A stretch of DNA of 64,000 nucleotides. It comes from Patescibacteria group bacterium. Lineage in GTDB: Bacteria; Patescibacteriota; Saccharimonadia; Saccharimonadales; JAZKJC01. The position numbers and the translations under genes are program-made. The notes below the pieces were generated by a model. The model made no database searches. It worked only from the letters and a program-made list of their open reading frames with translations, and was not told the origin of the DNA. The stretch covers positions 1,457 to 65,456 of the forward strand of contig JAZKJC010000001.1 in the NCBI GenBank assembly GCA_040384565.1. Reading direction: 5' to 3'. Of this stretch, positions 2,952-50,702 are shown in pieces; position 1 is the stretch's first letter; each line of letters opens with the position of its first letter.

Positions 2952-4409
2952 TTGAAAAACACTTGGCGTTTCAGACGAACTACCGTTATAACTATTGGGC
3001 TACTAGCCTTTTTGGGTGGACTTGGTTTTGCGCGGACCAGAATCTGGCTTTCGGGCGCGGTAATAATTACGGTATGCCTGATGTTTTTGGTGACTATTTT
3101 TAAACGGAAGTTACCGGCTATTCTTGGAGTTTTGTTATTTGGCTTTGTACTTGGGTGGTGGAGGGGACAAGTCTTTTTGCAGCGTCTGGAGCCGCTGCAA
3201 CGCCTGCATGGCCAGCATATTGTAGCAACCGTCCAGGCTACAACTGATGCCGTTTATGATGACCGCCAGCAACTGTCTTTTGACGCTAATGATTTACACG
3301 TGAGCGATCCTACAGAAGAGGTATTGCCTGGTGTGATACAAATCGCTGGGCTGGGTCTATCCGCCGTGTATAAGGGTGATATTGTGAGAATAGAGGGGAA
3401 AGTTTACGCTTCACGCGGCAGCCGGATCCTGAGGATGAGTTTTGCGGAGATGGAAATACTGGGTCGTACTGATTCACCGATTGACAGTATTCGCCGCGAG
3501 TTTGCGGCCGGTATGCAGACAGCATTACCGGAGCCTCAGGCGTCCTTTGGACTGGGTCTGCTCATAGGGCAGCGTAACACTCTGCCTGATGACGTAACCG
3601 CGCAGTTATCGGCAGTTGGACTGACACATATCATTGCCGTATCCGGCTATAACCTGACCATTATTATGCGGGCAGTACGGCGTAAGCTCAAAAACCGGTC
3701 TAAATATCAGATTACTGTTTTGTCATTGGTGCTGATGGGATTATTTTTGTTAATGACGGGATTTAGTGCCAGCATAGTCCGGGCAGCAATAGTAAGCGGC
3801 CTGAGCCTGTTAGCCTGGTACTATGGCCGGACATTTCGTCCGTTGCTTCTGCTGGCATTAGCGGCAGTCGTGACGGCTGGCTGGAATCCGTTGTATATAT
3901 GGAGTGATATTGGATGGTATCTGTCATTCCTGGCCTTTTTTGGCGTTTTGATTGTGGCGCCGCTAATACACAAAAGATTGTTTGGAGACAAGGAAGTAAA
4001 AGTCCTGACGGGCACCCTAACAGAAACGTTATGCGCGCTACTAATGACAGTGCCACTGGTCCTGTATATTTTTAATCAAGTATCTTTGGTTGCCGTTCTT
4101 TCCAACTTGCTGATAGTGCCGCTTGTGCCGTTTGCCATGTTGTTCGCGTTGCTGGCGGGGTTGGGTGGCATGCTGTTGCCCATACTGGGAGGCATCATAG
4201 CATTGCCGGCCAGAATCTTACTAACCTATATGCTTGATCTGGTGCAAATTATCTCACGAATCCCTAATGCTTTGGTTGAGCGCGAACTTTCTTTGCTTAG
4301 CATGTTATTTTTGTATTTATGCGTGAGTCTTTTTGTGATAGTTTTATGGCGCCAAGTAGTCAAGAAACATGTTACAATAACAGATGTAAAAGCGGAGAAT
4401 GAAGCGTGA
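2952..4409 (+). CDS. comEC: ComEC/Rec2-family DNA internalization channel (no C-terminal metallo-beta-lactamase domain)
   Basis: 485-aa polytopic membrane ORF with the core motif LSAVGLTHIIAVSGYNLTIIM. TTG start according to the ORF track. Confidence 0.8.
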   Translation: MKNTWRFRRTTVITIGLLAFLGGLGFARTRIWLSGAVIITVCLMFLVTIFKRKLPAILGVLLFGFVLGWWRGQVFLQRLEPLQRLHGQHIVATVQATTDAVYDDRQQLSFDANDLHVSDPTEEVLPGVIQIAGLGLSAVYKGDIVRIEGKVYASRGSRILRMSFAEMEILGRTDSPIDSIRREFAAGMQTALPEPQASFGLGLLIGQRNTLPDDVTAQLSAVGLTHIIAVSGYNLTIIMRAVRRKLKNRSKYQITVLSLVLMGLFLLMTGFSASIVRAAIVSGLSLLAWYYGRTFRPLLLLALAAVVTAGWNPLYIWSDIGWYLSFLAFFGVLIVAPLIHKRLFGDKEVKVLTGTLTETLCALLMTVPLVLYIFNQVSLVAVLSNLLIVPLVPFAMLFALLAGLGGMLLPILGGIIALPARILLTYMLDLVQIISRIPNALVERELSLLSMLFLYLCVSLFVIVLWRQVVKKHVTITDVKAENEA

Positions 4410-5137
4410 GCGGTCACAGTAAATGGTCAACTATCAAGCGGCAAAAGGGCGCCAAAGACGCGGCTCGTGGCGCTGTATTTACGCGTTTGGGTAACGCTAT
4501 AGCCCTGGCCGCTCGCGGAGGTGACGACCCTGGCATGAACTTTACGCTTAGGTTGTCGATAGAAAAAGCCAAGGCAGCCAATATGCCAATGGCTAATATC
4601 CAACGCTCTATTGACCGGGGTAGCGGCAAACTGGGTGGTGCTCAGATTCAGGAGGTCATGTACGAGGGCTATGGGCCCGGCGGAGTGGCAATTCTGGTAG
4701 AGTGCGCCACGGACAACATCAACCGGACTTATCCGGAAGTAAAATTAGCTTTTAGCAAGCACGGGGGCAATGTTGCCGAAAAGGGCGCCGTAGCGTTTCA
4801 GTTTGATCGCAAGGGCAGCATACGGGTGAAAGGTGGGGGTGATGATTTGCTGCTGGCCGCTCTGGACGCCGGTGCTGATGATGTGCAAGAAGAAAGCCAG
4901 GAATCAATTATATACACAGACGCAAAACAACTGGCTACGGTGAGCGATGGCTTAAAAGCAGCTGGCATTGAAGTCATAGAAGCCGAGATCACCTATGTTC
5001 CTAATAACACTGTAGAAGTAAAAGATGCCGAAACCGCCGGTAAAATCATGCGCCTAATGGATGCCCTAGAAGACCAAGCCGACGTAACCACCACCCACGT
5101 AAACTTCGACATCTCCGAAGAACTGCTGGCAAGCTAA
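4406..5137 (+). CDS. yebC: YebC/PmpR-family transcriptional regulator
   Basis: N-terminus MSGHSKWSTIKRQKGAKDAARG is the family signature. 243 aa. Overlaps the comEC stop by 4 nt. Confidence 0.9.
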   Translation: MSGHSKWSTIKRQKGAKDAARGAVFTRLGNAIALAARGGDDPGMNFTLRLSIEKAKAANMPMANIQRSIDRGSGKLGGAQIQEVMYEGYGPGGVAILVECATDNINRTYPEVKLAFSKHGGNVAEKGAVAFQFDRKGSIRVKGGGDDLLLAALDAGADDVQEESQESIIYTDAKQLATVSDGLKAAGIEVIEAEITYVPNNTVEVKDAETAGKIMRLMDALEDQADVTTTHVNFDISEELLAS

Positions 5138-5937
5138 TGTACTATCAAGCAGAATTAGATTTCGCAAAAAATCTTGCGGAAAATGCTGGGAAAATTATGA
5201 ACCGTTATTTTTTGAGTCAGGATATGGGTACGACCTGGAAAAAGGACAATACTCCTATCACTGTTGCAGATACTATGATAAATGATTTAGTGATCTCCGA
5301 GGTTAAGAAGCATTTCCCCAAACACGGCGTATTAGGTGAGGAATCTAGCTATAAGCCGGAGCGTCCTATGATTTGGGTGGTAGACCCGATTGACGGTACC
5401 ATGCCTTTCAGCGCCGGCATCCCTGTATGTACTTTCTCCTTAGCTTTAGTAGACAGGGCGACAGGCCAGTCAGTAATTGGTGTAGTTTTTGACCCATTTC
5501 TTAAGCATCTCTATACATCAGTCATAAATACTGGCGCATTCCTAAATGATAAGCAAATTAAGACCTCAAAAATAACAACCCTTAAGAGTGCTTATCTGTC
5601 TGTAATTGGTGGTAGTGAAGATGATATTTTTAAGCCAGGGAAGTGCCTTGATTTAATGCGGGACACAGGAGCTCAATATTTGTCTATGATGTCTAGCGTA
5701 TATTCGGCAAGCAAAGTCGCAACAGGTGATCTAGCGGGCGGAGTCTTTGGCTACGGATCGCCCTGGGATTCGGCAGCAGTTTCATTACTAGTACAAGAAG
5801 CAGGTGGTAAAGTTACTGACTTAGAGGGAAAACCAAGACGTTACGATGAATGGGGTAACGGTTGTGTGTTTGCCGCAAATGACGTTATTCTTAGCAAGTT
5901 GTTGGATATTATAAGTAAATCATCGTCAAAGAGTTAG
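5137..5937 (+). CDS. inositol monophosphatase family protein
   Basis: Motifs GEES and WVVDPIDGTMPF. 266 aa. Confidence 0.8.
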   Translation: MYYQAELDFAKNLAENAGKIMNRYFLSQDMGTTWKKDNTPITVADTMINDLVISEVKKHFPKHGVLGEESSYKPERPMIWVVDPIDGTMPFSAGIPVCTFSLALVDRATGQSVIGVVFDPFLKHLYTSVINTGAFLNDKQIKTSKITTLKSAYLSVIGGSEDDIFKPGKCLDLMRDTGAQYLSMMSSVYSASKVATGDLAGGVFGYGSPWDSAAVSLLVQEAGGKVTDLEGKPRRYDEWGNGCVFAANDVILSKLLDIISKSSSKS

Positions 5938-5944
5938 GCAAAAG

Positions 5945-6418
5945 ATGCGTATTATAGGTATTGATCCGGGGACGGGGATCCTGGGATTTGGAATTATTGA
6001 AGTAAATGTCAGAGGCAAGGCATTGCTAGTAGATGGCGGTGTTATAAGAACCCCTGTTAAGGAAGACGATGCCGTACGGCTATTGACTATATACGAAGAA
6101 CTAACAGATATTATCGTGAATACCAAACCTCAGGTTATGTCAGTAGAAAAACTTTTTTTTGCCCAGAACGTAACTACCGCTATGACGGTAGCTCAGGCCC
6201 GGGGCATTGTATTGCTCACAGCCATGCAAGCTGGCTTGGAGATTCATGAGTACACGCCATTGCAGATCAAACAAGCCCTGACAGGCTACGGCCGTGCCGA
6301 CAAAAAACAGATGCAGGAAATGGTCCGCGTAATCCTGGGTCTAAAAGAAATCCCCAAACCAGACGACTGTGCCGACGCTTTGGCCGCCGCCCTCTGCTGC
6401 GCCCAAAGTGTGAGATAA
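5945..6418 (+). CDS. ruvC: crossover junction endodeoxyribonuclease RuvC
   Basis: MRIIGIDPGTGILGFG N-terminus. 157 aa. Lies beside ruvA/ruvB. Confidence 0.9.
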   Translation: MRIIGIDPGTGILGFGIIEVNVRGKALLVDGGVIRTPVKEDDAVRLLTIYEELTDIIVNTKPQVMSVEKLFFAQNVTTAMTVAQARGIVLLTAMQAGLEIHEYTPLQIKQALTGYGRADKKQMQEMVRVILGLKEIPKPDDCADALAAALCCAQSVR

Positions 6419-6433
6419 TGCCCCCACTAAACA

Positions 6434-6458
6434 GTTTCCAAGGAGCCTCCTTGGAAAC
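6434..6458. repeat. REP-like perfect palindrome, left copy (GTTTCCAAGGAG-C-CTCCTTGGAAAC)
   Basis: 12+1+12 nt palindrome read directly from the sequence. An identical copy lies at 7100-7124. Confidence 0.9.
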
Positions 6459-7072
6459 TAGTAGTCTGCTAGCTCATTTTTTATTTCATCTATAATTTTT
6501 TTTTGATCAATCCAGTCAGCTACAAACTTCTCATATTCTTTTACAGAGCTAAATAGTTCCAAAATTCTTTCGGGCTGAATCCAGTTAGCTTGCTTTTGAT
6601 CAAGATAATAAGGCAGGCTTGAATATTTCCATTTTTGGTATTGCTGAGGATTTAAATGTATATAGCGTGAAATATGTTGTAAATAGTCATCGCGAGTTAT
6701 CATTGATGCTTTGAATCTATCTTGAAATAAGGGACCGGTGCGCTTGTATTTTTTATTAAAGTAAGCTGTATATGATGTGCCAACTCTACGTAGTAACTGT
6801 GTCATTGCATCTGGCTCGAGCTGGTATATGAGCAAGTGATAGTGATTGGGCATTAGACAAAACGAAAGAAGCTCAACGCTATTATGCAGCCACTCATATT
6901 CTCTGCCCCTGTTATCGAGGGTTGGTTTATCATCAAGGTATCGTTTCAAAAGATTTAAGAAAACAGCATAATCTGAATCGTCAAGGAATACCCTCCGCTT
7001 ATTGACCCCTCGGTTATATAGATGGTAATAAGCTTCGGGTAAGTAAATTTTTTCAAGATTACGACTGGGCAC
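6458..7072 (-). CDS. IS200-like Y1 (HUH) transposase, REP-associated tyrosine transposase (RAYT)-like
   Basis: HUH motif MPNHYHLLIY, C-terminal RYIHLNP with Tyr, 204 aa. Flanked by identical palindromes. Confidence 0.75.
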   Translation of the reverse strand: MPSRNLEKIYLPEAYYHLYNRGVNKRRVFLDDSDYAVFLNLLKRYLDDKPTLDNRGREYEWLHNSVELLSFCLMPNHYHLLIYQLEPDAMTQLLRRVGTSYTAYFNKKYKRTGPLFQDRFKASMITRDDYLQHISRYIHLNPQQYQKWKYSSLPYYLDQKQANWIQPERILELFSSVKEYEKFVADWIDQKKIIDEIKNELADY

Positions 7073-7099
7073 TCATAGATTCTATAACATAAAAACTTA

Positions 7100-7124
7100 G
7101 TTTCCAAGGAGCCTCCTTGGAAAC
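7100..7124. repeat. REP-like perfect palindrome, right copy
   Basis: Identical 25-nt palindrome (26 nt including the preceding A) to 6434-6458. Confidence 0.9.
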
Positions 7125-7149
7125 GAGAAGATAATGAGATAATGAGGGG

Positions 7150-7731
7150 ATGATTGCGACATTAAGTGGTGTGGTTGCCGAAAAGCTGGATGTGGTTTTA
7201 GTTTTAGACGTTCAAGGCGTGGGTTATGGTTTGCTGGTTACTAACGAAGACTTTAGTGCACTCATGGTCGGGGACCATGCCAAAGTTTACGTGCATGAAC
7301 ACATTAGGGAGATCAGTCATGACTTATATGGTTTTTGCCGGTTGGACAGTATGAGATTGTTCGAGCAGTTGCTGGATGTTAACGGCGTAGGGCCAAAGAT
7401 GGCACTAAAAATTCTTGGTGTCGGTAGTGCAGATGCGGTTCGCACTGCGATTGCTGCAGGCGACACCAAGTTTATCCAGGCAGCCAGTGGAGTGGGTAAA
7501 AAGGTTGCTGAACGAATAGTGGTGGACCTGAAAGACAAAGTTGGGCTGGTAAGTAATGAAGGTGCGACTGATTTTTTACAAGGCCCGGCCTTGCAGGACG
7601 AAGCAGTACAGGCTTTAGTGGCGCTTGGTTTTACACCGCAAGACGCAACCTTGGCGCTGCAAAATATTGACGCAAAACTTTCTTCAGAAGAACGTATTAA
7701 AAAAGCATTGAAGTACCAGGGGAAACACTAA
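7150..7731 (+). CDS. ruvA: Holliday junction branch migration complex subunit RuvA
   Basis: 193 aa. HhH region LLDVNGVGPKMALKIL. Directly abuts ruvB. Confidence 0.9.
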   Translation: MIATLSGVVAEKLDVVLVLDVQGVGYGLLVTNEDFSALMVGDHAKVYVHEHIREISHDLYGFCRLDSMRLFEQLLDVNGVGPKMALKILGVGSADAVRTAIAAGDTKFIQAASGVGKKVAERIVVDLKDKVGLVSNEGATDFLQGPALQDEAVQALVALGFTPQDATLALQNIDAKLSSEERIKKALKYQGKH

Positions 7732-8760
7732 ATGGCAGTTGAACGGATTGTACAAGGCATAGTCCCGGATGATGACCAGCAGGAACAAGAACTGGAAGTT
7801 ACACTGCGGCCACAAGATTTTGCCAGCTATATTGGCCAGGAGCGGCTCAAAGCCAACTTGATTTTAGCTATTACGGCGGCCAAAAAACGTGGTGAACCGG
7901 TGGACCATGTTTTGCTGTATGGACCACCAGGGCTGGGTAAAACCACCACAGCTAGCGTTATAGCACACGAGATGGGCGCTAATATACGTATTACCAGCGG
8001 ACCAGCCATTGAGCGGGCAGGAGATCTGGCAAGTCTGCTCACGAATCTGCAGGACGGCGACATCTTGTTTATTGACGAGATCCACCGCTTGCACCGCACA
8101 GTAGAAGAAGTACTATATAGCGCGATGGAAGATTTTAAGCTGGACATTATGCTTGGCAAAGGCCCAAGCGCGCGTAGCTTAAGACTTGATCTGCCAAAGT
8201 TCACGCTTATTGGCGCAACAACGCGTACGGGCGCTTTAGCCGCGCCGTTACGTGATCGCTTTGGCTTACAGCACCGGCTGGAATTTTACAGTCGTAGCGA
8301 AATAGCCCAAATTATCCTACGGGCAGCCAGCATACTAAAAGTCAAAATAAGTACTGATGCCGCTGAACACTTGGCGGAACGAGCTCGACTAACTCCGCGT
8401 ATAGCCAACCGTTTGCTCAATAGAGTAAGGGATTACGCAGATGTTAATGGCGACGGTATTATTGACGCTAATATAGCACAAAGTGCTCTAGGGCTCTTAG
8501 AGATTGACGAGCTAGGGCTTGATCCGGCAGACCGGCGAGTGCTTGAGGCAATCATTGATAATTATAACGGCGGGCCGGTTGGACTTGACACCATTGCCGC
8601 ATTAACTGGGGATGAGCGTACAACTATAGAAGATTTCTACGAGCCATATATGATGCAGATAGGACTTTTGGAGCGCACGCCGCGTGGCCGCAAAGTGACT
8701 CCAAAAGCCTACAAGCATTTGGGCAAAAAGAACTCAGTAAATCAATCAACATTACTGTAG
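7732..8760 (+). CDS. ruvB: Holliday junction DNA helicase RuvB
   Basis: Walker [10 protein letters not shown], Walker [11 protein letters not shown], 342 aa. Confidence 0.95.
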
Positions 8761-21012: not shown

Positions 21013-21614
21013 AAATTACAGATATAAAACAGCAGGTTAAACGTGCGGATAGGTACTCTATATTTATTGATGGAAAATATGTGTTTTCATTTTCTGAAAA
21101 TGAGCTTTTGAATACCGGCCTGCGGATTGGGCAGGAATATACGGAGACGGAGCTTGACGAGCTAAAGAATAAAGCAGTGGTGGATAAAGCCTATGACCGT
21201 TCTCTGAATCTTATTATGCGCCGTTCCAGAAGTGAGTGGGAGCTGCGCGATTACTTAAAAAGAAAAGAATATGAAACAGAGATAATTGATAAAATACTTA
21301 ACAAGTTAAGTGAAAGGGGACATGTAAATGACGAGGACTTTGCCTGTCGTTGGGTAGAAAACCGCCGGCTCCTTAAAGCAACCAGTAAGCGACGGCTCAT
21401 GCAAGAACTGCGGCAAAAACGTGTCAGCGATGACATTATTCAGGCGGTTCTGGAGGCTGACGAAACGGACGAACAATCAGTCCTGCTTGAACTGATTGTA
21501 AGAAAGCGCAAACAAACCAAATATCAAGACGACCTAAAACTTACGCAGTACCTAGTGCGCCAAGGCTACAGTTACAACGACGTCAAAGAAGTCATGGCAA
21601 CACTTAGAGATTAG
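21009..21614 (+). CDS. recX: recombination regulator RecX
   Basis: Repeated three-helix modules (ELRDYLKRKEY..IIDKILNKLSERGHVNDEDFACRWVENRR). 201 aa. Confidence 0.8.
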   Translation: MKITDIKQQVKRADRYSIFIDGKYVFSFSENELLNTGLRIGQEYTETELDELKNKAVVDKAYDRSLNLIMRRSRSEWELRDYLKRKEYETEIIDKILNKLSERGHVNDEDFACRWVENRRLLKATSKRRLMQELRQKRVSDDIIQAVLEADETDEQSVLLELIVRKRKQTKYQDDLKLTQYLVRQGYSYNDVKEVMATLRD

Positions 21615-41861: not shown

Positions 41862-43388
41862 TTACAGCTCGTGCATAACACTGATTTGGGCGCCAAGGCT
41901 GTTGAGGCGTTCGGCAAAATCTTCGTAGCCGCGATTGATTGAATAGACATTTCTAAGGGTTGACACGCCAGGTGCCGCCAGCATTCCTAGTAGCAGCAAA
42001 ATGGCCGGGCGCAGAGCAGGCGGGCAGACAATATCAGCCGCGCTAAATTTAGTTGGGCCGTCAATGTAAGCGCGGTGCGGATCGGCCAAAGTTACGTTTG
42101 CGTTGAGTTTGCGCAGCTCCGTGTAGTAAAGCGCCCGTTCTTCATAAACCCAGTCATGTATTAGCGTACGGCCCTTGCAAGCAGCAGCAATGACTACAAA
42201 TAGCGGCAAATTATCAATGTTTAAGCCAGGATATGGGCGGGCATATATTTTTTCTTCAAGGGCGGTGAGCTTGCCGTCATGTTTATGAACCGTTATGTCC
42301 GACAAATTGGTATAGCCATTCTCCGCCTTATAGTAAGGGGTTACATCAGTTGTGAGCCCCATCTTTTTAAGTTTCAACAGCTCTAGCTCAAGGAATTCAA
42401 TTGGTGCGCGGGTGATAGTTATCTTGGAGTTTGTGGTTACCGCCGCAGCGATAAATGTCATGGCTTCAATAGGGTCTTCACTTGGACTATAAGTAACATT
42501 TTTCTTAATCTCTTTCACCCCGCGAACCCGCAGCGTGCTTGTGCCTATACCTTCGATCTTTACACCAAGCTTTTTAAGGAAATAGCAAAGGTCTTGCACC
42601 ATGTAATTGGCGCTGGCCATTTTGATAACAATTTCTTCCTCGAATTTGCTGACTGCCATGAGCACGTTTTCTGTCGTAGTATCACCGGATTCATATAAAA
42701 CAATTTGCGGGGCGGCGTGTTTATTGACTTTTACGTCATAGAATCCACTTTTGGCTACAATATCTACGCCCAGCTCCTCTAGCGCGAACAAGTGAGGCTG
42801 GACGGTTCGGCTACCAAGCTTGCAGCCACCCGCATAAGGAATCTTGAACTCCTTGAAAAGATGCATAAGTGGGCCTAGCAACATTAGTACGCTGCGAGTT
42901 TTACGGGCGGCGTTGCCATCCATTTTGTCGAGTTGGAGCGTAGCTGGTGGCTTTATCTCCAGATCATTTCCAGGTAACCAACGAATATGTACGCCAATGC
43001 TAATGAGCACCTCAACTAACCGGTTTACTTCTTCTATTCGTGGCATGTGCTTAAGTTTAGTTGTGCCTTTATTGAGCAGGGAAGCCATTAATAAACACAC
43101 TGCGGCGTTTTTAGAAGTTTTTGTTTCTATAGTGCCTTTCAGCTCATGCCCGCCCTCTACTTTAAGGTTAACCGCCCCACCACTTATGCTAATCAACGGC
43201 TTTTTTAATACATCGCTAATACGGCCAAGTGTTTCAAGGCTAAGGTTTTGGTGTCCATGTTCGATTCGGTTTACGGCACTCTGGCTTGTACCAAGCTTGC
43301 GGGCAAAGGCTGCTTGGGTAAGGCCTCTCTCTTGTCTTATCTGGTAAATTAAATGGCCAATTTTCTCGTTTGTTGTTTGCATTATCAT
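41862..43388 (-). CDS. murA: XRE-type HTH domain fused to UDP-N-acetylglucosamine 1-carboxyvinyltransferase
   Basis: N-terminus IRQERGLTQAAFARKLGTSQSAVNRIEHGHQNLSLETL, followed by a full MurA (KNAAVCLLMASLL, active-site loop YAGGCKLGSRTVQPH). Candidate starts are 43403 (GTG), 43388 and 43382. Confidence 0.85.
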   Translation of the reverse strand: MIMQTTNEKIGHLIYQIRQERGLTQAAFARKLGTSQSAVNRIEHGHQNLSLETLGRISDVLKKPLISISGGAVNLKVEGGHELKGTIETKTSKNAAVCLLMASLLNKGTTKLKHMPRIEEVNRLVEVLISIGVHIRWLPGNDLEIKPPATLQLDKMDGNAARKTRSVLMLLGPLMHLFKEFKIPYAGGCKLGSRTVQPHLFALEELGVDIVAKSGFYDVKVNKHAAPQIVLYESGDTTTENVLMAVSKFEEEIVIKMASANYMVQDLCYFLKKLGVKIEGIGTSTLRVRGVKEIKKNVTYSPSEDPIEAMTFIAAAVTTNSKITITRAPIEFLELELLKLKKMGLTTDVTPYYKAENGYTNLSDITVHKHDGKLTALEEKIYARPYPGLNIDNLPLFVVIAAACKGRTLIHDWVYEERALYYTELRKLNANVTLADPHRAYIDGPTKFSAADIVCPPALRPAILLLLGMLAAPGVSTLRNVYSINRGYEDFAERLNSLGAQISVMHEL

Positions 43389-43427
43389 AATAGTATATCT
43401 CACAGGGTATAATAATCAAATCAACAT

Positions 43428-43450
43428 ATTCCAAGGCCGGGCCTTGGAAT
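43428..43450. repeat. REP-related palindrome ATTCCAAGGCC-G-GGCCTTGGAAT
   Basis: Perfect 11+1+11 palindrome that shares TTCCAAGG...CCTTGGAA with the RAYT-flanking palindromes. Confidence 0.8.
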
Positions 43451-43547
43451 ACTTGGCGCAATTTATTTAAATGGGATAGAATACATGGATGATTTAGCGA
43501 AATACTTGTTTACAGAACTTTATTAACAAGTATTTTAGGAGTTTATT

Positions 43548-44813
43548 ATGAACGATACAGAAATTGAAGAATTGATAGCATCAGAAGTACGGCGCCAAAG
43601 CGAGGGGCTAGAAATGATCCCAAGTGAAAACCATACATCGGCGGATGTGCTAGCGGCATTAGGATCCCGCCTAACTGATAAGTATTCAGAAGGCTATCCG
43701 GGCATGCGCTATTACGGCGGTTGTGAGTTTGTGGATAAGGTAGAAAACGTAGCGCGTGATCGAGCTAAAGCATTATTTGGCGTAGATCACGTCAATGTGC
43801 AGGGATATTCTGGCTCGCCAGCTAACCAGGCCATATATTTTGCGCTAGTTGATCCTGGAGATACCGTAATGGGACTTCATTTATACTACGGTGGTCATAT
43901 GACACATGGGCTAAAAGTTAACTTTTCAGGAGTTTATTACAATTCTGTTCAGTATCATACTGGCAAAGACGGTTACCTTGATTACACGGAAATGGAAAAA
44001 ATGGTCAAAGCCGAAAAGCCAAAATTACTAATGGTTGGAGCGACAGCATATCCTAGGATTTTTGATTGGCAACGTTTGCGTGCGATTGCTGATTTATGCG
44101 GGGCGTGGCTGGTAGCCGATATTTCACATATATCCGGCTTGATTGTAGCTGGGGCACATCCCTCCCCGGTAGGCATTGCTGATGTAGTTATGACTACTAC
44201 ACATAAAACACTGCGTGGTCCACGCGGTGCATTGATAATGTGTAATGGTAATCTTTCTAATCCACTCAAAAAGCCGGAAAGAACAAAAGAAAACCTACCA
44301 TCTCTAATAGACCGGGCTATAATACCGGGCTTGCAGGGTGGTCCACACAATCACCAAACTGCGGCTATTGCAGTGGCACTTAAGGAGGCTTCTACGCCTG
44401 AGTTTAAGACTTATGGTCAACAGATCGTCAAAAACGCCAAGAAGCTTGCCGAGGGGCTATTATCAAAAGACTATAATTTAGTAACCGGCGGGACCGATAA
44501 TCACTTGATATTAATCGATCTGACTAATAAAGATATCAGCGGCAAGGAAGCCGAGAACGCGTTGAGCCTGGCAGGCATTACGGCAAATAAAAATACGGTA
44601 CCGTTTGATCCAAGGTCTCCATTTGACCCATCTGGCCTAAGGCTGGGCACTCCAGCATTAACCACGCGTGGAATGAAAGAAGCAGAGATGGAGCAAATTG
44701 CTAAATGGATTGACCAAGCAGTGAGCAATCGTACTAATGAAAGCTTGTTAGGTAAGATACACATGGAAATCACTGAGTTTACTAAACAGTACCCTCTTCC
44801 TAGAAATACTTAA
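43548..44813 (+). CDS. glyA: serine hydroxymethyltransferase
   Basis: LEMIPSENHTS, TTTHKTLRGPRG (PLP lysine), 421 aa. Confidence 0.97.
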   Translation: MNDTEIEELIASEVRRQSEGLEMIPSENHTSADVLAALGSRLTDKYSEGYPGMRYYGGCEFVDKVENVARDRAKALFGVDHVNVQGYSGSPANQAIYFALVDPGDTVMGLHLYYGGHMTHGLKVNFSGVYYNSVQYHTGKDGYLDYTEMEKMVKAEKPKLLMVGATAYPRIFDWQRLRAIADLCGAWLVADISHISGLIVAGAHPSPVGIADVVMTTTHKTLRGPRGALIMCNGNLSNPLKKPERTKENLPSLIDRAIIPGLQGGPHNHQTAAIAVALKEASTPEFKTYGQQIVKNAKKLAEGLLSKDYNLVTGGTDNHLILIDLTNKDISGKEAENALSLAGITANKNTVPFDPRSPFDPSGLRLGTPALTTRGMKEAEMEQIAKWIDQAVSNRTNESLLGKIHMEITEFTKQYPLPRNT

Positions 44814-44888
44814 CACGTTAAGTATAGCAACTATCTTAAGCTAATCCATAGCGCTCAGATTCAAATAATACTTAACGTGTTAAGTATT
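44805..44888. repeat. 21-bp inverted repeat pair (each arm itself near-palindromic) in the glyA/murB convergent gap
   Basis: AATACTTAACACGTTAAGTAT at 44805-44825 has its exact reverse complement at 44868-44888. The first arm overlaps the glyA stop codon. Confidence 0.8.
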
Positions 44889-50455: not shown

Positions 50456-50702
50456 TGGTGCACCCGGTAGGATTCGAACCTACGACCTTTGGTACCGGAA
50501 ACCAACGCCCCGCCTGTCTGGCCAATTAACAATATGATGGTGGGACCGGCAGGACTTGAACCTGCGACCTTCAGTTTCGGAAACTGACGTTCTATCCAAC
50601 TGAACTACGATCCCTTGTTTGGGTATAGCACCACATTTAGAGTCAATGCCTCATTTTGAAGGACAGACGGGCGGACAGGTCTATCCACTGAGCTACGGGT
50701 GC
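50456..50702 (-). tRNA. interrupted (split) tRNA-Arg (anticodon CCG): 5' part 50702-50680, 3' part 50508-50456, 171-nt insert in the D-stem
   Basis: GCACCCGTAGCTCAGTGGATAGA plus GCGTTGGTTTCCGGTACCAAAGGTCGTAGGTTCGAATCCTACCGGGTGCACCA joins into a flawless 76-nt cloverleaf. Neither part folds as a tRNA alone. Confidence 0.6.
50538..50614 (-). tRNA. tRNA-Arg (anticodon CCG), CCA encoded, nested inside the insert of the split tRNA
   Basis: Minus strand GGGATCG-TA-GTTC-AGTTGGATA-GAAC-G-TCAGT-TTCCGAA-ACTGA-AGGTC-GCAGG-TTCAAGT-CCTGC-CGGTCCC-A-CCA. Confidence 0.9.

Follow-up and report, generated by a model that had tools for sequence, protein, structure and literature searches.

What kind of element separates ruvC from ruvAB in the genome of a Patescibacteria bacterium, and how might it have come to lie there? 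The question is raised by a stretch of 64,000 nt (contig JAZKJC010000001.1, positions 1,457 to 65,456; hereafter the window), in which ruvAB are separated from ruvC by a unit made up of an antisense gene for a Y1-type HUH (histidine-hydrophobic residue-histidine) endonuclease and two copies of a 25-nt palindrome, one on each side of the gene. We conclude that this unit is probably REPtron-like, consisting of the gene for an HUH/tyrosine single-stranded DNA (ssDNA) endonuclease of the type of the REP-associated tyrosine transposases (RAYTs; REP, repetitive extragenic palindrome) located between two copies of the palindrome that the enzyme recognises. The features of the locus are as follows.

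5945-6418, plus strand: ruvC, the left neighbour (Pfam RuvC, 163.9 bits); its last codons and stop (AGA TAA) lie inside the left 10-nt direct repeat
6411-6420: left copy of the 10-nt direct repeat TGAGATAATG, at the ruvC stop and resembling a target duplication
6434-6458: distal palindrome (13+1+13 when extended to 6433-6459), located where the 3' ends of ruvC and the Y1 gene converge
6458-7072, minus strand: Y1 HUH endonuclease gene, intact, 204 amino acids, GTG start (Pfam Y1_Tnp)
7079-7084, minus strand: TAGAAT, a -10-like hexamer for the Y1 gene found by consensus scan, 6 nt upstream of the Y1 start codon
7100-7124: proximal palindrome, the same 25 nt; its arms read TTGGAA outward at 7107-7102 (minus) and 7117-7122 (plus) and are the putative -35 boxes
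7135-7144: right copy of TGAGATAATG, just upstream of ruvA; it includes GATAAT (7138-7143), the putative -10 box for ruvA, with 15 nt to TTGGAA on one side and 6 nt to the ruvA ATG on the other
7150-7731, plus strand: ruvA, the right neighbour (Pfam RuvA_N/HHH_5/RuvA_C)
7732-8760, plus strand: ruvB, 3' of ruvA (Pfam RuvB_N/AAA_lid_4/RuvB_C)

A preliminary description of this DNA had placed two identical 25-nt palindromes around a 204-amino-acid open reading frame (ORF) on the minus strand, between ruvC (stop 6418) and ruvA (start 7150). Sequence and coordinates agree with the former statement, and the ORF list together with the Pfam matches agrees with the latter. The palindrome reads GTTTCCAAGGAG-C-CTCCTTGGAAAC (12+1+12; = GTTTCCAAGGAGCCTCCTTGGAAAC), and no third exact copy occurs within the window. 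The direct repeat spanning the two copies is exact over 26 nt and extends to 32 nt at 94% identity (6433-6464 / 7099-7130). Folding of each copy as ssDNA yielded a predicted hairpin of 11-12 bp at about -11 to -12 kcal/mol (z = -5 to -6). The distal palindrome and the Y1 stop codon overlap by 1 nt. An Rfam search of 6300-7300 returned nothing meaningful.

The Y1 protein scored 36.9 bits against the Pfam family Y1_Tnp (PF01797), which is above the cutoff of 23. Its motifs are CLMPNHYHLLIY/CLMPNHYHLL, LFQDRF, SRYIHLNP and W-x-x-SS (S151-S152), and H77, H79, Y137, N141 and P142 are invariant among 26 homologues of 59-74% identity. The HUH and C-terminal tyrosine signatures of a Y1 transposase, which had been recognised before, were thus recovered both by the Pfam match and by the presence of NHYH and YIHLNP. 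Because sequence searches of the PDB with the single protein and with a 26-sequence profile gave only marginal matches (E about 0.4 to ISDra2 TnpA), a fold search was needed and was performed with an AlphaFold (AF2) model (pLDDT 89). The top PDB match was 4er8, E. coli TnpAREP in complex with a REP hairpin (E = 1.9e-7, TMt 0.67); the ISDra2, IS608 and IS200 transposases ranked lower. The Foldseek matches to 4er8, 2xo6 and 2vjv had E values of 3e-5 or better. IS200 transposases carry the tyrosine motif Y---Q, whereas class 2 enzymes (TnpAREP/RAYT) carry Y---NP, and subclass 2.1 of class 2 is defined by NH[YF]H, FQ, Y[IV]HLNP and SS (Quentin et al. 2018, PMC6006769, Table 1). Judged by motifs and predicted fold, the Y1 protein is RAYT-like (class-2 TnpAY1) and closest to subclass 2.1, rather than IS200-like. 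No tnpB-like gene was found adjacent to Y1 in any inspected context. Y---NP, the best fold match to 4er8 and this lack of an adjacent tnpB bear out the earlier assignment to the RAYT type rather than to an IS200/IS605 TnpA accompanied by TnpB.

The family of this protein is large, comprising more than 4000 proteins at E of 0.001 or better in a 90%-clustered collection. The best 120 of these matches are about 204 amino acids long (186-251), are 59-100% identical and originate, where the source is named, from Saccharibacteria, Saccharimonadales or 'Patescibacteria group'. In a 50%-identity library, 234 cluster representatives matched at E of 1e-30 or better and 21,216 at 0.001 or better. The nearest homologues from outside the candidate phyla radiation (CPR) are about 30% identical. 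Two were checked: the Legionella homologue (L131; L numbers designate the compared loci) has Y1_Tnp and a weak C-terminal Bac_DnaA_C/HTH (helix-turn-helix) domain, as in subclass 2.1, and the Pseudomonas homologue has a Y1_Tnp match only. Aligned with the Legionella homologue, the Saccharibacteria proteins end before the distal HTH-like domain, for which the protein of the window has no Pfam match; the Saccharibacteria proteins also carry a 15-amino-acid insert between the first helix and the second strand. Plasmid and phage collections contained only Y1 relatives of 35% identity or less, and PHROGs contained no match for the Y1 protein. By these searches, mobile replicons do not commonly carry members of the Y1 family.

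The surroundings of Y1 genes were surveyed in 80 further metagenome loci carrying 82 Y1 genes, which were retrieved by protein similarity alone (35-65% identity). Perfect palindromes with a stem of at least 9 and a loop of 6 or less, located within 120 nt of the gene, occurred near 44 of the 82 Y1 genes and on both sides of 22 of them. This corresponds to a rate of 0.40 per Y1 flank compared to a background of 0.021 in the rest of the same loci, an enrichment of about 19-fold. By inspection, both flanking copies share their core in about 20 of the 22 two-sided loci, and the cores vary between loci on the common theme (C/T)A(A/G)GG...CC(T/C)T(G/A). REPIN-like inverted doublets of an asymmetric unit were present in L043, L054, L066, L067, L073, L099, L101, L105, L109 and L115. 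PFEG01 harbours two Y1 paralogues that are 63% identical, each with its own palindrome (L016 vs L123): TTCCAAGGAG-N- for the copy at the ruv locus and TTTACAGGGTG-N-CACCCTGTAAA for the copy adjoining parAB. Across the loci compared, the palindrome type co-varies with the Y1 lineage. The flanks of 39 type-1 palindrome copies read outward, on both sides, as an A, then a pyrimidine, then a G-rich/C-poor segment, and the element may thus be a longer imperfect palindrome (C-run ... core ... G-run). L090 contains three copies of CCTACAAGGCCAGGCCTTGAAGG (137-151, 349-363 and 653-667), two of them inside the Y1 gene itself, similar to the REP insertions within tnpAREP genes described for subclass 2.4.

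These comparative data already contradict the view that the palindromes are ordinary intrinsic terminators or the result of a chance duplication, unlinked to the ORF. The distal copy does lie between convergent genes, and the proximal copy scored as terminator-like on the minus strand in the consensus scan. However, each lineage has its own palindrome on either side of the gene, perfect palindromes are 19-fold enriched beside Y1 genes, and a 21-nt core of the window's palindrome is identical in loci whose Y1 is only 64-74% identical to that of the window. Moreover, matches to the palindrome occurred in none of 100 dinucleotide-preserving shuffles of the window, and inspection of the sequence 3' of the distal hairpin revealed no T-run on either strand. 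We regard this explanation as extremely improbable.

The order ruvC, antisense Y1 gene, ruvA, with a palindrome on each side of the Y1 gene, was also found in L001, L002, L016, L026, L036 and L121; L003-L005 and L023 are near-identical to L002. Together with the window, these loci form a syntenic set of seven diverged Saccharibacteria lineages. The Y1 proteins of the syntenic relatives are 62-73% identical to that of the window. In six of the seven lineages, and in L023, the identical 21-nt core TTCCAAGGAG-N-CTCCTTGGAA is present on both sides of Y1, while L121 carries the variant TTCCAAGACC-N-GGTCTTGGAA on both sides, with three changes per arm that are all compensated. The nearest pairs according to Y1 (window-L001, L002-L036 and L016-L026) are the same pairs according to RuvC and to RuvA. 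The flanking palindromes are thus retained where relatives share the arrangement. The preliminary description had considered it unusual; by these comparisons it is an old and widespread feature of Saccharibacteria and not a one-off.

In four close relatives (L125-L128; RuvC 82-86% identical to that of the window), the site is empty: ruvC and ruvA are 7-18 nt apart, and the junction contains neither a Y1 gene nor a palindrome. The ruvC end ...GAGATAAT... occurs once at the empty sites and is followed by the ruvA ATG 6-7 nt on; in the window, two copies of TGAGATAATG bound the unit like a 10-nt target duplication. The short ruvC-ruvA distance in the four close relatives shows the unit to be an insertion into ruvCAB, in agreement with the earlier statement that it splits these genes. 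At the empty site of L128 (about 2964-2992), a tandem duplication GTGTGAGATAA GTGTGAGATAA was observed, which may have been left behind when the unit was lost or may have arisen independently.

In a tree of RuvC and RuvA, the window groups with the empty loci L125 and L128 with 100% bootstrap support. Across the compared region (4406-8760), the window is closest to L001 in RuvC (93% identity) and YebC (82%), and closest to the empty L125 and L128 in RuvA (80-82%) and RuvB (88-89%). These mosaic identities suggest recombination at or near the Y1 unit, and homologous recombination between occupied and empty alleles may explain the patchy distribution. Three scenarios for the patchiness can be envisaged: one old gain followed by losses, allelic exchange, or repeated site-specific insertion. 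The first two are favoured, as Y1 is deeply diverged, the pairings agree and near-identical copies were not seen.

Repeated gain and loss is what would be seen if the whole palindrome-Y1-palindrome unit were an autonomous IS200-like insertion sequence (IS) with site-specific insertion at the end of ruvC and precise excision. Such an element would fit the finding that close relatives differ in the occupancy of one and the same site, as well as the subterminal hairpins at both ends of a unit of roughly 0.7 kb. These hairpins, the fold and the catalytic chemistry are shared with IS200/IS605 elements (IS608, ISDra2). In addition, the same palindrome type surrounds a 68%-identical Y1 in another context (CAYXCB01), and the tandem duplicate in L128 might be an excision footprint. 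However, multiple identical copies as expected for an IS are missing: Y1 paralogues within one genome are only 59-63% identical, no near-identical copies were seen, and even the closest syntenic Y1 pair shares only 73% identity. Unlike IS200/IS605 elements, the unit encodes Y---NP instead of Y---Q, is found without tnpB in the inspected contexts and remains in long-term synteny with host genes, and its hairpins are dispersed, mostly as solo copies distant from any Y1 gene. Furthermore, target duplications are not made by Y1 transposition, and the mosaic identities allow recombination of occupied and empty alleles as the source of the patchiness. An autonomous IS therefore appears quite unlikely.

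The spacer between Y1 and ruvA has a strict layout in all seven syntenic loci. On the Y1 side, the start codon is separated by 6-8 nt from TAnAAT, which is in turn 15-17 nt from TTGGAA in one palindrome arm; on the ruvA side, TTGGAA in the other arm is followed after 15 nt by GATAAT and after a further 5-7 nt by the ruvA ATG. The consensus scan independently found the box pair on the Y1 side. GATAAT beside ruvA is invariant in 7/7 occupied loci, although it no longer codes for the ruvC end there, and its equivalent at the present ruvC ends has drifted. Invariance without a coding role speaks for a non-coding constraint, such as that on a -10 box, and the fixed distance from palindrome to -10 box on both sides suggests that the proximal palindrome may supply the -35 box for divergent Y1 and ruvA promoters. 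We infer a bidirectional promoter in which the palindrome arms would serve as shared -35 boxes and from which near-leaderless transcripts would arise. The hairpins had been proposed to act as bidirectional terminators; given its surroundings, a role as a shared promoter element appears more plausible for the proximal hairpin than one as a terminator. In the window, the Y1 start codon is GTG (7070-7072, minus strand), while all 25 aligned homologues begin with Met at ATG; the GTG start may lower expression or translation of Y1 if the transcript is leaderless. A LexA/SOS box upstream of ruvA was considered and rejected, since the same sequence occurs at the Y1 3' end and inside unrelated genes and its type tracks the Y1 lineage.

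Further copies of the palindrome, as implied by the earlier REP/RAYT assignment, were found in related genomes. An exact-pattern scan for the 21-nt core covered 185,579 species genomes, one per species, and stretches of up to 8 kb were fetched around the matches. The exact core was found in 32 stretches, 30 of which belong to metagenome-assembled genomes (MAGs) of Saccharibacteria/Saccharimonadales or to unclassified bacterial MAGs. The related MAGs contain 2-6 exact cores each, most of them without a Y1 gene in the fetched stretch, and many of these solo copies are intergenic. Only a few orphan copies are spaced from a -10-like box and a start codon as a -35 function would require (e.g. L027 and L039; 15-17 nt). 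The two matches in Yanofskybacteria (L034, L040) are probably a coding coincidence in motif III of a UvrD-like helicase (FRFQGASLEN), in keeping with an estimate of about 0.5 chance matches for the scan.

Other copies lie in frame within genes. As crude ORF calls had over-extended starts, in-gene copies were accepted only with Pfam domains on both sides. In-frame copies of the 21-nt core occur in PrmC (L009, L038), Dus (L017, L030, L035), a ComF-like phosphoribosyltransferase (L020, L032), UvrC (L025, L033) and TlyA/FtsJ (L015). They are read as SKEAPWK, with the exception of UvrC, where the peptide is FQG[GA]SLE. In PrmC, Dus, ComF and UvrC, the copies are found at matching positions of orthologues sharing only 46-58% identity, and more distant orthologues (ComF of L006, UvrC of L118) lack the palindrome segment. 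Since an exact-pattern search biases palindrome identity, 120 PrmC orthologues were collected by protein similarity. Just before the GTGSG motif, some of these have no extra peptide and others carry SKEAPWK, SKVQPWN, SKVEPWK, SKTRSWK or SRVRPWK, which back-translate to different palindrome types. PrmC of L129 (1841-1863) contains a perfect TTTCCAAGACC-A-GGTCTTGGAAA of the L121 type, and that of L130 has one mismatch. The occurrence of different compensated palindromes at one PrmC site indicates a constraint on palindromy itself. It would be compatible with the replacement of old copies by whichever type is active at the time, or with repeated use of a single permissive target.

The promoter-like geometry and the in-gene copies both bear on the possibility that the palindromes are primarily host regulatory DNA (-35 elements, operators or terminators), and that Y1 is a domesticated DNA-binding regulator of genes including ruvAB and not a DNA mover. 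Such a role would account for the strict geometry at the proximal palindrome in seven loci, for the perfect, dimer-like symmetry and for those orphan copies that lie at promoter spacing from -10-like boxes and start codons; a palindrome of a second type is present in another divergent intergenic region, and conservation at orthologous positions suggests host-level selection. However, the HUH histidines and the catalytic tyrosine are invariant, arguing that catalysis is retained, and many copies are located within coding sequences and would hardly be useful there as promoters or operators. In addition, the palindrome type follows the Y1 lineage and not the regulated gene, and related loci contain REPIN-like inverted doublets. 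A primarily regulatory system is thus unlikely.

Under the favoured REPtron-like reading, the following course of events can be proposed. By analogy with E. coli TnpAREP and the IS608/ISDra2 TnpA proteins, the 25-nt palindrome would form a hairpin (11 bp, 3-nt loop) when present as ssDNA, for example on the lagging-strand template. The Y1 enzyme would bind this hairpin and would cut and rejoin the DNA beside it by means of the HUH metal site and Tyr137. Over evolution, palindrome copies would have been spread and kept uniform at intergenic and in-frame intragenic sites, each Y1 lineage acting on its own palindrome variant. The unit would have entered the 3' end of ruvC in an ancestor and then travelled with the ruv genes in several Saccharibacteria lineages, while it is absent from close relatives. 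The proximal TTGGAA arms and the -10 boxes 15-17 nt away would form divergent promoters now driving Y1 and the orphaned ruvAB, and the distal palindrome would form a hairpin between the convergent ends of ruvC and Y1.

Among known systems, the unit resembles the REPtrons (E. coli yafM/TnpAREP, 4er8; RAYTs of Pseudomonas and Stenotrophomonas) in several respects. In both, a Y1 HUH enzyme with the class-2 motif Y---NP (and here with its best fold match to this group) is encoded by a gene that is bracketed by cognate palindromes, occurs in low copy number and has divergent paralogues with a palindrome type of their own; solo palindromes lie elsewhere, some within genes, and REPIN-like inverted doublets occur in related loci. 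In contrast to REPtrons, the Saccharibacteria palindromes have perfect 10-13-bp arms with a 1-nt centre and no GT[AG]G tag, the Y1 protein has the 15-amino-acid insert, and the hosts are Patescibacteria with genomes of about 1 Mb. Classical REPs are present in hundreds of copies per genome, as opposed to a few here.

Subclass 2.1 (Quentin et al. 2018, PMC6006769) is equivalent to RAYT group 1 (Bertels et al. 2017) and to TIRYT/TIRtrons (Di Nocera et al. 2013). With these the unit shares the motifs NH[YF]H, FQ, Y[IV]HLNP and SS, as well as flanking repeats at a fixed distance from the gene that form only moderately abundant families, and the closest non-CPR homologues are of this type. Unlike subclass 2.1 enzymes, the Saccharibacteria Y1 proteins lack the distal HTH-like C-terminal domain (Bac_DnaA_C, HTH_23, HTH_28), and the flanking repeats are self-complementary hairpins rather than terminal inverted repeats of the GGGGWSAS type; this motif was not seen by inspection of the flanks 6419-6433 and 7125-7149, without a formal pattern search. 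Precedents for copies in coding regions are given by intragenic REPs and by Rickettsia palindromic elements, in which in-frame palindromes are likewise found in tolerated loops of housekeeping genes and are conserved between species with reduced genomes. The Rickettsia elements differ in their length of 100-150 nt, compared to 21-25 nt here, and in that the present elements have a candidate enzyme.

Several observations weigh against the REPtron-like reading. The copy number is low, with no more than six exact cores per MAG and only the two flanking copies in the window. The score of the Y1 protein against the NCBIfam model NF047646 (REP_Tyr_transpos) is 47.4 bits, below the equivalog cutoff of 80. 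The 5' GT[AG]G guide tetranucleotide expected at the hairpin foot is absent from the flanks, which instead follow an A-Y-purine-rich consensus. A perfect palindrome with a 1-nt centre suits the double-stranded site of a dimer equally well as a hairpin. The 100% identity of the orphan loci is in part an ascertainment effect, because these loci were found by exact-pattern search. At the ruv locus, lineages with and without the unit are intermixed on the host tree, and simple vertical descent is therefore insufficient; the 10-nt target duplication is unlike the products of HUH Y1 transposition. Finally, no REP-like sequences have been reported for subclass 2.1 in published surveys, and Quentin et al. 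2018 (PMC6006769) found none in the vicinity of its genes. Thus, the REP/RAYT interpretation of the preliminary description is supported in its essentials, with the reservation that the palindromes have neither the GTAG tag nor the classical high copy number and that the protein stays below the NCBIfam RAYT cutoff.

A literature search linking REP, RAYT or TnpAREP with Saccharibacteria, CPR or Patescibacteria found nothing, although its coverage was incomplete and this is no proof of absence. The loci represent a widespread and apparently undescribed REP/RAYT-like system of Saccharibacteria, which would extend REP/RAYT-type systems to Patescibacteria. As a subclass-2.1-like branch with cognate dispersed hairpins, within a subclass reported to be without REPs, it would also call for a revision of the surveys. 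For the questions of what RAYTs do for the cell and how REPs spread, the Saccharibacteria system offers a tractable case, since few copies, short perfect hairpins and tiny genomes allow every palindrome copy to be traced across species. The ruv locus may further represent a case of exaptation, as the insertion split ruvCAB yet appears to have supplied a promoter that keeps ruvAB expressed. Different perfect palindromes at one PrmC site suggest either that the DNA itself is constrained or that replacement has been targeted within a coding sequence.

A more far-reaching proposal, which we put forward tentatively and consider rather doubtful, is that palindrome and Y1 form a host-integrated system under selection in the ultra-small genomes of Patescibacteria. 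Through the action of the enzyme, a small and fixed set of palindromes, including those in the essential PrmC, Dus, UvrC and ComF, would stay uniform and would be replaced in concert upon a shift in its specificity; the palindromes would be portable bidirectional promoter or structural elements that, at the present locus, couple the expression of Y1 and ruvAB. If true, this would be the first evidence for a defined cellular role, and for a site-preserving 'rewriting' activity, of an enzyme of the RAYT family.

Two further features of the window are related to a second palindrome type.

43427-43451: orphan second-type palindrome TATTCCAAGGCC-G-GGCCTTGGAATA (CCAAGGCC-G-GGCCTTGG), perfect 12+1+12
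7579-7593: short copy of the second-type core, CAAGGCC-C-GGCCTTG, read in frame as LQGPALQ in the linker between the RuvA domains

The palindrome at 43427-43451 is related to that of the ruv locus and lies in a divergent intergenic region between a murA-like gene and an ORF at 43548-44813 that is putatively glyA-like. No Y1 gene is located near it, and the window contains no cognate Y1 for this type. In L042, palindromes of the second type lie on either side of a Y1 paralogue of 63% identity, and in L086 and L116 they flank further Y1 genes. For the copy at 7579-7593, the expected chance count is 0.02; the closest relatives, L125 and L128, have nearly the same RuvA linker peptide without a palindrome, and the copy may be a decayed one or a coincidence. 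The murA-like ORF (41862-43403, minus strand) has an apparent N-terminal XRE-type helix-turn-helix segment (LTQAAFARKLGTSQSAVNRIEHG), judged by reading of the sequence alone. Another palindromic motif, AATACTTAAC-NN-GTTAAGT, occurs three times in the window (21292-21311, 44804-44823 and 44866-44885) and may be an operator or a terminator; two of its copies, separated by 62 nt, lie downstream of the glyA-like ORF. Two tRNA-Arg(CCG) genes lie side by side at 50460-50528 and 50538-50614 (minus strand), the first of which is only 69 nt long.

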